Shown: piece by piece, positions 37,265-39,983 of the stretch
Layout of the letters: each line of letters opens with the position of its first letter
Numbering within the stretch: position 1 is the stretch's first letter
Source of the DNA: Ruminococcus sp.
GTDB taxonomy: Bacteria > Bacillota > Clostridia > Oscillospirales > Acutalibacteraceae
Length of the DNA stretch: 64,000 nucleotides
Assembly: GCA_051880895.1 (NCBI GenBank)
Contig: JBJEOV010000087.1
Span: forward strand, 32,135-96,134
Direction of reading: 5' to 3'
Program-made: the position numbers and the translations under genes
Notes under the pieces: generated by a model
What the model was told of the DNA's origin: nothing
Database searches by the model: none
What the model saw: only the letters and a program-made list of their open reading frames with translations

Positions 37265-37975
37265 TTATTTTGTTTCCGTTTTCAGCTTTTTATCGTGGAT
37301 TTTCCTTGCCAGATAAACAAACGGGGTGTCAAGCAGACTTGTGAATACATAAATAATATAGCTTGACAGGAAAATCGAGATAAGAGTCGGAATATCGTAG
37401 GTTCCCCAGAAGGCAAAGGCTGTGAAAAGAGCTGTGTTCAGAAGCTGGCTTATGAGCGTTGAACCGTTGTTTCTCAGCCATAAAAAGCTGCGTTTGCTGC
37501 CGGATTTTTTTTCGGTAAGCCTCCACCACTTGTGATACAGCCATACATCAAACATCTGACTTATTGCATACACAACAAGAGATGCAAGAATCATTCGGGG
37601 AGTGCTTGAGAAAACAGTCTTTATTGACGGCATCATAACATCTGCCTCACTCGGAGTGTAAAGCATCCAGCTCTGAGAAAGCACAAGGAAAAAGACCGAT
37701 GAAAAAATACCTGCATATACTGCGGTCTGCGCTGCCTTTTTGCCCTCACATTCCGAGAGAATATCGGTTATTAAAAATGTAACTGCAAACAGAATGTTGC
37801 CGAGCGTCTGCTCCATTCCGAATGCGTTAATCAGTATTGTAACTTCAATATTTGCAAGAATAGACGCTATTACAGATATACAGTAAAGCCCCGTTTTGCC
37901 GAAAAGCGCATAGCCTGTAATTGCCGAGCCGTAGATAAATACTACGGAACATATAAGTATAAGTTCGTTTGTCAT
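37265..37975 (-). CDS. yhhQ: Queuosine-precursor transporter (YhhQ/VUT family)
   Basis: FAVTFLITDILSE and WLRNNGSTLISQ motifs; downstream of a preQ1 riboswitch. Confidence 0.85.
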   Translation of the reverse strand: MTNELILICSVVFIYGSAITGYALFGKTGLYCISVIASILANIEVTILINAFGMEQTLGNILFAVTFLITDILSECEGKKAAQTAVYAGIFSSVFFLVLSQSWMLYTPSEADVMMPSIKTVFSSTPRMILASLVVYAISQMFDVWLYHKWWRLTEKKSGSKRSFLWLRNNGSTLISQLLNTALFTAFAFWGTYDIPTLISIFLSSYIIYVFTSLLDTPFVYLARKIHDKKLKTETK

Positions 37976-37976
37976 A

Positions 37977-38684
37977 TCAGTCGCCCACCCCGAAATCAGT
38001 ATTGTTTATTAAAATATCTGCTCTGTCATTATCCTTGTAAATAGGATATATTTCCTTAATAAATGCACTGATAAGCTCCTTATCGGGCTTGACCGAGGTG
38101 GAATTCTCGCACATTATATTAATGCAGATTCGTTCAAAATATTTAAGCCCAAGCTCAATATCTTTTTTTATTGATTCGACAGTCTGACCTTTAATTCCGA
38201 AAAGGAAATTAGCCTCATCAAAGCTTTCTGAGATTTTCTCGGGATTTTTCTCTTTGATACCTTTTTTCAGTACATTCTCTCTGAAATCATAATCAAAGGT
38301 TTCAAGACCGAGCTTCATTTTAAGCGTAAAATCCGAAAATTCCTTACGCAAATCAGCAATCCTGCTGTTGTAGAGATAGTGCGACTCAAAATGAATTGTG
38401 TGGATATTCTTTTTTCTGCAAACCTCTTTTATAAGCCCGATGGTATTTTTGTCAAGCTCAAATACCGAACCCGAGTTTATAACCTCAAGGTTTTGATAGA
38501 CGCCTGAAATTTTTTCAAGCACCCTGCTGTTCAGCCTGAAATTTTCCTCTTCATTATTACAGCTGTCACTGTAATAATCGCAGAAGGTGCATTTTTTGTA
38601 AACACAGCCGCTTCCACGCAGAAGTACAATTTCACGCCTGTTTTTTTCGTGAATGATACTGTACCTTTCCATAATTTTCGGCAT
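37977..38684 (-). CDS. queL: Radical SAM protein, QueL-like queuine lyase
   Basis: RYS..EKN.REIVLL, CVYKKCTFC (CX4CX2C) and FESHY; context of preQ1 riboswitch and yhhQ. Confidence 0.65.
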   Translation of the reverse strand: MPKIMERYSIIHEKNRREIVLLRGSGCVYKKCTFCDYYSDSCNNEEENFRLNSRVLEKISGVYQNLEVINSGSVFELDKNTIGLIKEVCRKKNIHTIHFESHYLYNSRIADLRKEFSDFTLKMKLGLETFDYDFRENVLKKGIKEKNPEKISESFDEANFLFGIKGQTVESIKKDIELGLKYFERICINIMCENSTSVKPDKELISAFIKEIYPIYKDNDRADILINNTDFGVGD

Positions 38685-38705
38685 AAAAAAACACCCGTAA
38701 GGGTG
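38685..38705 (-). terminator. Riboswitch expression-platform terminator
   Basis: CACCC-TTAC-GGGTG followed by T7, directly before the start codon. Confidence 0.75.
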
Positions 38706-38737
38706 TACGGGCATAGCAAGCCCTATGCCTTTCCTCC

Positions 38738-38799
38738 TTAGTTTTGATTGGGCAAGCCCCTGTTGGTTATTGCCCGAGCAGGATGGTTACGAACTGCTC
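38738..38799 (-). ncRNA. preQ1-I (type I-like) riboswitch aptamer with an extra hairpin in L3
   Basis: GAGCAG/CUGCUC P1 with GUUCGUAACCAUCC loop; AAAACUAA tail after an inserted GGGCAA/UUGCCC hairpin. Confidence 0.8.
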
Positions 38800-38806
38800 T
38801 TATATT

Positions 38807-38835
38807 ATAATATCATAATACGGAGATTTTGTCAA
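38807..38835 (-). promoter_or_regulatory. Promoter of the que salvage operon
   Basis: TTGACA-17-TATTAT with extended TG; start site predicted at the aptamer 5' end. Confidence 0.7.
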
Positions 38836-38972
38836 ACTATAAGAAAAACTTATGTTTATTTACAAAATTACTTGAATTTGTGGGTGAAATTGTATATAAT
38901 TTTATAGAGAGAACAGCATTGACAGGTGTTGTTTGCCGATAATAATCTTATGGAGTTTTGAAAGGTGAAAAA

Positions 38973-39983
38973 ATGAGAGATTTTGGTTTTTATGGAGATA
39001 CTACAGAGAGATTTCCTTTTTCGGGAAAGGAAATGCGTCAGTATCAACAACAGGTAAAGCGCATACGCAGTAATCACAGGCTTACAGTGCTGACATTTGT
39101 ACTTCTGACTTTAGCGATAATTGAATCAATGTTTTTTGTCGCTGTTCAGCTGATGCTCAAAAGCTTTGAATATGCAGGACTGCTCGGTGTAATTCTCGAG
39201 GTGCTTACCTTGCTTGTAATTGCAGGCGCAATATACGGCTACAGGAGAATTTCGCTTGATTTAAGGGCGATTGATCTGGCGGTCATAATAATATCCGAGT
39301 TATTGTTCGGCTTTTCTGAGTATATGCTGTATATGTATAAACAGCCGTTTTATCTGTATGTTATTGCAGGTGTTTCTTTTGTGCTTATTCTCTATGTTTT
39401 CCTTTTTGTTAAAGCAAGAATCAGGCAAAGAGTTCTGTTTTCTGCAATTCCGCTTGTGGTGCTTGCAGCGGCTTGCTTTCTGAGTATAAACAACTCGGTT
39501 TTTACTGTAAGATATGTTTATCTTTCGCCGGACGGTTACTATAACGATGTAAGCAATAATGATATTACACATTTTTATTATACGCAACCGATTAATGCAA
39601 AGAGCTTTTCTGAATTTTGTTCAAACAGCAACAGCGTTATTTACAGTATGGATCAATTTAACAGCTTTTGCGATTCATATAAAGGCTCTGCAAATATGGG
39701 CGAATTGCTCAATTTCAGCCGTACCTACAGCGAAAGCTTTTTTGAAAATAACTGCCTTTATCTTGTTCCTGTGGAGCTTGAATCGCCGTCAGACAGAATA
39801 TACTTTAAAGGACTGAGCTACGCCTTGAGCGCACAAAAGCCTTGTGTTCAGTATGTAAAGGATAAGGACGGTAAAAAGACAGGCAGTGTTTGCCTTATGC
39901 TTATAGAGGTTCCGCTCAGAGATGATGAAAAGCTGAACAGTGTGGTAAAGCTTAAAACAGACGATGTGATTATGGCAAGATAA
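38973..39983 (+). CDS. Hypothetical membrane protein (about 5 TMs plus extracellular domain)
   Basis: Long ORF, AAAGGTGA RBS, hydrophobic N-half. Confidence 0.7.
   Translation: MRDFGFYGDTTERFPFSGKEMRQYQQQVKRIRSNHRLTVLTFVLLTLAIIESMFFVAVQLMLKSFEYAGLLGVILEVLTLLVIAGAIYGYRRISLDLRAIDLAVIIISELLFGFSEYMLYMYKQPFYLYVIAGVSFVLILYVFLFVKARIRQRVLFSAIPLVVLAAACFLSINNSVFTVRYVYLSPDGYYNDVSNNDITHFYYTQPINAKSFSEFCSNSNSVIYSMDQFNSFCDSYKGSANMGELLNFSRTYSESFFENNCLYLVPVELESPSDRIYFKGLSYALSAQKPCVQYVKDKDGKKTGSVCLMLIEVPLRDDEKLNSVVKLKTDDVIMAR

Follow-up and report, generated by a model that had tools for sequence, protein, structure and literature searches.

A predicted type I preQ1-I riboswitch with a hairpin embedded between P1 and L3 in the leader of a queuosine-salvage operon from Ruminococcus sp.

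The queL–yhhQ locus and its leader

The window, the whole stretch of 64 000 nucleotides of Ruminococcus sp. DNA that was analysed, carries on its minus strand two adjacent genes of queuosine salvage preceded by a structured leader. The first encodes a 231-residue radical-SAM protein which, by its gene context, is probably the queuine lyase QueL, whose role has been described elsewhere (PMC11477304; PMC11130926); its 1870 homologues are mostly of this same length and go under the database name 'radical SAM protein'. The second encodes a queuosine-precursor transporter. Features of the leader and the two genes are given below in window coordinates.

38807–38835, minus strand: near-consensus sigma-70-type promoter, TTGACA-17-TATTAT with an extended −10 TG (11 of 12 consensus positions matched)
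38776–38799, minus strand: aptamer stem-loop, P1 and loop (sequence and RNAfold)
38798–38794 and 38781–38777, minus strand: P1, AGCAG paired with CUGCU (5 bp)
38793–38782, minus strand: 12-nt loop UUCGUAACCAUC, bearing U6, U7, C8, A12 and the specificity base C17
38775–38750, minus strand: inserted 26-nt hairpin GGGCAA-UAACCAACAGGGGC-UUGCCC (sequence and RNAfold)
38749–38733, minus strand: A-rich segment and tail AAUCAAAACUAAGGAGG, comprising L3 and the pseudoknot tail
38749–38741, minus strand: L3 AAUCAAAAC, 9 nt, canonical positions 23–31 including A28–A30 and C31
38740–38736, minus strand: UAAGG, the 3' strand of P2 and also the putative antiterminator strand, with AGG coming next
38729–38710, minus strand: middle hairpin GGCAUAG-GGCUUG-CUAUGCC, between tail and terminator
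38706–38685, minus strand: intrinsic terminator ACACCC-UUAC-GGGUGU followed by U7 (terminator scan)
38702–38698, minus strand: CCUUA within the terminator, complementary to the tail UAAGG, 6 nt before U7
37977–38672, minus strand: QueL-like radical-SAM protein, 231 residues, starting MERYSIIHEK; weak match to TIGR01210 (RaSEA)
37265–37975, minus strand: YhhQ/QPTR queuosine-precursor transporter (PF02592, 156.6 bits; TIGR00697, 174.4 bits)

From the promoter spacing, transcription is predicted to start at about position 38800, 1–2 nt 5' of P1. A sixth pair, G38799–C38776, extends the five pairs of P1, and the equivalent of C17 is C38782. The inserted hairpin follows P1 with a linker of 0 nt and combines the outer stem GGGCAA/UUGCCC with an apical mini-hairpin, CC-AACA-GG (38766–38759, minus strand). 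RNAfold yields exactly four hairpins for the element (−42.7 kcal/mol; z = −2.3 against shuffled sequences), and among aligned queL leaders a GGCAU-type hairpin between tail and terminator is common. The stems, loop, 26-nt hairpin, tail, second hairpin and U7 terminator listed in a first-pass annotation of this DNA were all recovered on the minus strand at the places it gave.

The start codon of queL was set at the ATG at 38672 (MERYS...) by alignment of 38 leaders and of the 231-residue homologues. Starts at 38684 and 38714 were rejected: these upstream in-frame ATGs are not conserved and the homologues begin MERYS. In the closest relative the upstream ATG is out of frame. The start chosen lies 12 nt further downstream than the ATG at 38684 and 19 nt from the terminator GGGUG, which had been taken for the ribosome-binding site and, at this distance, is unlikely to be one; what precedes the AUG in queL leaders is generally just a U-rich tract, with no recognizable Shine–Dalgarno sequence. 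In the window (38670–38691, minus strand) and in leaders L013–L125 the queL AUG comes 4–12 mostly U/A nucleotides after the terminator U-run, and ORF prediction tends to lengthen the gene to spurious in-frame starts further upstream (245 versus 231 residues in the window). On the other side of the riboswitch promoter and facing away from it, two strong promoter-like sites (38872–38946, plus strand; TTGACA-16-AATAAT and TTGAAT-17-TATAAT) point towards a 341-residue membrane ORF (38958–39983) that is without a Pfam match; with the riboswitch promoter they make the intergenic region a divergent promoter pair.

The genome to which the window belongs (G000, 98% complete) contains tgt (506 bits), and queC was not detected in it; it therefore depends on queuosine salvage, and the organism appears to rely on salvage entirely for queuosine. 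Feedback by preQ1 on the salvage genes makes sense in such a background. The window element is the sole match to a type I model in the whole genome.

Assignment to type I preQ1-I and failure of the Rfam model

Type I aptamers of preQ1 riboswitch class I are marked by UU after the 5' strand of P1, UC before its 3' strand and CUA in the tail (PMC11625349; PMC8752633), and the roles of their residues, among them C17 as the specificity base, have been worked out (PMC8752633). All three marks are present in the window, the UC containing C17, and the type I assignment of the first-pass annotation is thereby upheld. P1 has five base pairs with the closing G5–C18 pair and covaries between the window and its relatives; the 12-nt loop with the UU/UC signature is UUCGUAACCAUC; and the A-rich L3 ends in C31 followed by UA(A)GG. 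L3 matches the consensus L3 of RF00522, AUAAAAAACUAAGG, in length and sequence, so that AAUCAAAAC-UAAGG in the window corresponds to AUAAAAAAC-UAAGG in the consensus. Since the 9-nt L3 has exactly the consensus length, the hairpin is inserted cleanly between positions 22 and 23; apart from it, the aptamer is undisturbed relative to RF00522. The element lies in the 5' leader of queuosine synthesis/salvage genes, and the 5' half of its terminator is able to pair with the 3' tail of the aptamer. Judged by its sequence, the element is a preQ1 riboswitch of class I, type I. Both strands of P2, in the loop and in the tail, are invariant in the relatives, leaving no covariation signal for the pseudoknot; in type I structures P2 is largely non-canonical, with a C8–A12–U32 triple and a G9–A33 pair (PMC8752633).

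RF00522 gives the window site a score of 14.4 bits (E = 2.5), compared with a gathering threshold of 39 bits. No Rfam family matches anywhere in the window at its gathering threshold, and a permissive scan returns only this 14-bit match, the alignment of which is wrong in that it places the tail in the loop of the inserted hairpin. That alignment suggested the hairpin loop AAUAACCAACAGGGG as an alternative (decoy) tail, a candidate that was dropped since the family shows no conservation of hairpin loops. None of the 18 hairpin-bearing relatives tested reaches the RF00522 cut-off (0 of 19 when the window is counted), and across the whole genome the model finds sub-threshold chance matches only, such as L001, which falls within a coding sequence. 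The printed RF00522 consensus structure, checked for a routine variable stem at the insertion point, has none at the P1–L3 junction. The first-pass annotation had called the insertion non-canonical and had foreseen that covariance models might miss it, and both points are borne out: the hairpin sits exactly between P1 and the A-rich L3, and the model fails.

The type definitions of preQ1-I are said to go back to McCown and co-workers in 2014. A 2024 review of the preQ1 families and the papers on type I structures present class I as a plain H-type pseudoknot and mention no inserted hairpin; full-text searches of the literature likewise brought up no preQ1-I variant with a hairpin that is inserted, optional or embedded, and the supplement to McCown et al. 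(2014) may mention one. What would be new in the predicted element is its topology and the annotation blind spot that goes with it; the ligand-binding core and the regulon are already known.

Comparison with characterized systems places the element accordingly close to type I members of RF00522 from Carnobacterium antarcticum, Haemophilus influenzae and Neisseria gonorrhoeae (PMC8752633; PMC11625349), with which it shares the 5-bp P1 closed by a G–C pair, the 12-nt loop with its UU and UC signatures, the 9-nt A-rich L3 ending in C and followed by UAAGG, and the control of queuosine genes. Type I aptamers bind two stacked preQ1 molecules and, by analogy, the same is expected here. In these known members L3 directly follows P1 to form a plain H-type pseudoknot of about 34–45 nt, whereas in the window the 26-nt hairpin parts the two, giving an aptamer of about 69 nt in place of about 34–36 nt and an embedded-hairpin pseudoknot. 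The resulting topology, HLout, in which the loop running to the 3' strand of the pseudoknot contains a hairpin, is that of preQ1-II (RF01054), whose ligand is the one expected here and whose associated genes include queT; the binding pocket and consensus of preQ1-II are, however, unrelated, and its P4 is a constant part of the consensus, while the window-type hairpin is optional, from 16 to about 70 nt long and variable in sequence. The third comparison is with the preQ1-I (type II) OFF switch of Bacillus subtilis queC, which like the proposed window switch has a tail common to the pseudoknot and to an antiterminator that competes with the terminator. The B. subtilis element has AC before P1 (UC in the window), binds one ligand and contains no embedded hairpin, and in the window an extra middle hairpin separates tail and terminator.

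Recurrence of the hairpin form in other species

Where the first-pass annotation had taken the insertion to be specific to this locus, the searches reveal a widespread optional module: the P1–loop–hairpin–tail architecture was found, with covariation, in more than 118 other species, a recurrence that takes the arrangement far beyond chance. An exact-pattern scan (the loop, a gap of 20–50 nt and AAAACUARGG, with one genome per species), which is biased to near-consensus loops, matched at least 120 loci in Ruminococcus, other Oscillospiraceae, Christensenellaceae, Lachnospiraceae, Coriobacteriaceae, Eggerthellaceae, Neisseriaceae (Snodgrassella, Eikenella) and Hallerella. The pattern placed no condition on P1; a perfect 5-bp P1, in at least ten covarying versions, surrounds the loop in 119 of the 121 sequences formed by the window and the matches listed, and in 113 of the 121 the gap holds a hairpin of 4 bp or more. 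Two exceptions were recognized, L020 as a chance match and L042 as a canonical aptamer with a duplicated tail. The latter (L042 7226–7276, from an Acidaminococcaceae MAG) has a canonical tail AAACAAAACUACGG and a second copy of the tail, AAAACUAAGG, 9 nt later, upstream of a YhhQ-like gene; the doubling may represent a duplicated tail or an alternative pseudoknot partner.

The inserts are more stable than their shuffled counterparts, with a mean folding energy of −7.55 kcal/mol for the 114 distinct inserts among the matches listed and of −2.97 kcal/mol for dinucleotide shuffles. For the most part the hairpin begins 0–2 nt after P1 and ends 3–6 nt before AAAAC, giving an L3 of 9–11 nt, and its sequence and length are unconstrained across the family, again among the matches listed. 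A covariance model of P1 and a 5-bp hairpin (R1), built from trimmed real stems, matches 100 of the 100 sources searched at 28–68 bits, most of them above 41 bits, with the window at 63.6 bits. In the model-fitted alignment A4, which leans towards the structure and was for this reason accompanied by shuffle and slide controls and by the independent folding-energy test, two-sided changes occur at each of the five modelled hairpin pairs, with 92% of cells paired; the hairpin covariation score is 0.458, whereas shuffles give 0.107, not one of 500 reaching the observed value, and controls with the partner strand slid stay at or below 0.048. The first helix, P1, is 99.6% paired in 102 relatives, and four of its five pairs change on both sides. 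A MAFFT alignment of the queL subclass (A1) was discarded for pair counts: its outer stems were out of register, hence the use of A4.

A search at the level of sequence similarity (BLAST) across 60 relatives found one copy. The frequency of the hairpin form was estimated in two samples. With the strict pattern, 401 genomes of the order to which the window belongs gave the canonical form (11-nt gap) in nine and the hairpin form in seven. R1 gave 92 matches in 84 of 300 genomes of the class Clostridia; 13 of these matches are longer than 52 nt, of which 10–11 are clear hairpin-bearing aptamers, with loops and tails outside the scan pattern such as UUCGAAACCAUCC, UUCGAGACCUUCC and ...CUAUGG. The hairpin form thus makes up roughly one in eight of the type-I-like preQ1-I matches in the Clostridia samples, a rough figure because R1 favours that form. 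A long example comes from the family of the window itself, where L145 (G104:C117:1700-1845) has a type I aptamer with a long imperfect hairpin of about 70 nt between P1 and the tail, and an ORF beginning 10 nt after the tail. In a Lachnospiraceae MAG, a THF riboswitch (L019 2333–2429; RF01831, 76.7 bits) lies 2 kb upstream of a hairpin-bearing preQ1 element.

The genes that follow are the usual ones of queuosine metabolism. In 107 of 116 loci among the matches listed the first downstream gene encodes QueT (56), a QueL-like protein (38), YhhQ (12) or QueC (1), and representatives were confirmed with Pfam and NCBIfam. Natural comparisons of leaders with and without the hairpin are available within one genus, in which the queT leaders of three species are about 98% identical over 400 nt, and their queT genes likewise about 98% identical: L131 (G431) has the canonical CUCAC-UUAAAUC-AAAAC, and L132 (G281) and L133 (G346) carry a 22-nt hairpin, with differing loops. 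The only large difference is this 22-nt indel at the P1–L3 junction (columns 137–158 of alignment A2), flanked by a 4-nt CTTA direct repeat that fits either a slipped-strand deletion or an insertion with duplication. In Eikenella/Neisseriaceae, two preQ1-I aptamers occur about 1 kb apart at the same locus (L034 1502–1557 and 2821–2863; L098 3048–3103 and 3975–4017); in the Eikenella pair a canonical 43-nt copy immediately precedes queF (TIGR03139) and a hairpin-bearing copy precedes yhhQ (NF008406). In the crystal structure of the Carnobacterium aptamer the P1–L3 junction is disordered (broken) in one chain (PMC8752633), which fits a flexible junction able to accept the insertion of a helix.

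These observations bear on the idea, raised in the first-pass annotation, that the insertion alters ligand stoichiometry or specificity. In its fullest form the idea is that the hairpin changes sensing and so defines a functionally distinct subclass, for example one that binds a single ligand where type I stacks two preQ1 molecules, that has a different cooperativity, or that recognizes queuine or preQ0. QueL acts on queuine, which makes a queuine signal conceivable, and the hairpins of queL-linked leaders keep an apical YC-RANA-GR motif while their stems drift. The ligand-contacting positions G5, U6, U7, C17, A28–A30, C31 and U32 are nevertheless unchanged in the window, as is the 9-nt L3, so that nothing suggests a new ligand; the regulated gene set is the same as for canonical copies, leaders that are otherwise about 98% identical may either carry the hairpin or lack it, and across the family the hairpin is free in sequence and length. 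We regard a change in sensing as quite improbable, and the suggestion of altered stoichiometry or specificity is not sustained by these comparisons.

Proposed termination switch and the role of the hairpin

Taking the established anatomy, conservation with covariation, gene context and failure of the Rfam model together, we favour, with a probability of roughly 80%, the reading that the element is a functional type I preQ1-I riboswitch with an embedded P1–L3 hairpin, that it controls termination ahead of queL–yhhQ and that the hairpin is dispensable for recognition. The hairpin at the P1/L3 junction would turn the H-type pseudoknot into an embedded-hairpin pseudoknot of HLout topology. With preQ1 bound, the pseudoknot would form by docking of the tail AAAACUAAGG onto P1 and the loop; the ACACCC/GGGUGU-U7 terminator could then fold and transcription would stop before queL–yhhQ. 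When preQ1 is absent, UAAGG would be free to pair with CCUUA, which spans the 5' half and the loop of the terminator, as soon as that segment has been transcribed, and the UAAGG/CCUUA antiterminator would permit read-through and expression of the salvage genes. A tail common to the ligand-stabilized pseudoknot and the antiterminator would amount to a transcriptional OFF logic. The hairpin, abutting P1, probably stacks under it as a helical extension; such coaxial stacking, like the ligand binding and the switch itself, is what we infer from the leader, and any tuning by the hairpin would at most affect the stability of P1 or the kinetics of folding.

Termination dependent on preQ1 is the most likely mode of control. 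Among the matches listed, 29 of 38 queL leaders have a complement to the tail of at least 5 nt situated 6–10 nt before the U-run, and the mean length of the complement in the 38 leaders is 5.0 nt, compared with 3.3 nt in shuffles. The typical terminator of these leaders has the form GCGUCCUUAGGGACGC-U6-7, the target of the complement being the tail CUAAGG(A); the antiterminator of the window, with 5 bp, is shorter than the 6–7 bp common in relatives. The equilibrium favours the terminator fold (−18.9 to −20.0 kcal/mol) over the 5-bp antiterminator (−14.5 kcal/mol), so that read-through would have to be decided kinetically, during transcription, and the antiterminator is retained as a kinetic mechanism because the complementarity is conserved in queL leaders. 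Among the 56 QueT-linked relatives the AAGGAG tail doubles as the Shine–Dalgarno sequence, with the ORF starting a median of 11 nt past the tail, and the hairpin-bearing aptamer thus also serves translational platforms.

A thermodynamically favoured terminator, together with an Rfam score so far under threshold, would also be expected if the insertion had inactivated the aptamer, leaving a relic, and the leader were only a constitutive or otherwise regulated terminator. We consider this extremely improbable: more than 118 species preserve the split aptamer base for base, its two helices have undergone compensatory changes, and the window copy is the sole element of preQ1-I type detected in this salvage-dependent genome.

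The queL lineage offers a further feature. In 24 queL leaders, including the window, among the matches listed, the hairpin is longer and made of three parts: a 6–7-bp outer stem, wholly different from one species to the next, leads through a small internal loop to an apical YC-RANA-GR mini-hairpin that is conserved. The apical part occurs as CCGAUAGG, CCAAUAGG and UCAAUAGA, its closing pair covarying from C–G to U–A; it reads CCAACAGG in the window (38759–38766, minus strand) and CCAAAAGG in R. intestinalis. The leader of the window recurs in the cultured relatives Ruminococcus intestinalis NSJ-71 and Pseudoruminococcus massiliensis (L037, L052). The other 14 queL leaders among the matches listed have unrelated hairpins. 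On a tree of QueL proteins the apical motif is clustered in a manner compatible with a single origin, and shared ancestry would accordingly explain part of its conservation; the QueL proteins of this group are only about 70–75% identical, which argues for some constraint on the apical loop. The conserved loop may mean that in the queL lineage the hairpin is more than a mere spacer.

Tuning of preQ1-II by its embedded P4 hairpin offers a precedent, by which the queL-lineage hairpin could be an active tuning or docking module in which a contact of the apical loop sets the kinetics of the termination decision. The retention of YC-RANA-GR and its closing-pair covariation in 24 leaders with wholly different outer stems, in the company of QueL proteins as divergent as noted above, speaks for such a module. 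The single origin with which the motif is compatible and the 14 queL leaders that work with unrelated hairpins weigh on the other side, and no partner sequence was found for the apical loop. We take an active module to be improbable, and the same holds for the contact it would need, be it a tertiary one to, say, the middle hairpin or the terminator, or one to a bound factor. The wider proposal that hairpin-bearing preQ1-I forms a functionally distinct subclass, in which a helix or apical-loop contact alters the cooperativity, affinity or timing of the two-ligand switch, seems to us rather unlikely. If it were true, the smallest riboswitch would have been repeatedly upgraded with a tuning domain, in the manner of preQ1-II with its P4. 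The reading of a type I termination switch with a dispensable hairpin is the one preferred here.

PreQ1-I is the textbook minimal riboswitch and a model for drug targeting. The finding that its P1–L3 junction takes hairpins of 16 to about 70 nt or more identifies a tolerated insertion site of the fold, which would be useful for engineering and for crystallization modules, and the natural matched pairs with and without the hairpin offer a direct test of the effect of a helical extension on a cooperative two-ligand switch. As far as can be told from genome sequences, hairpin-bearing preQ1-I is a common natural variant in gut and rumen bacteria. Since none of the 19 examples scored reaches the RF00522 cut-off, queuosine-salvage regulons in gut and rumen genomes are under-annotated. 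For the Ruminococcus studied here, the arrangement suggests a simple regulon logic, in which a genome lacking a detectable queC would place its queL–yhhQ salvage operon under feedback by preQ1.
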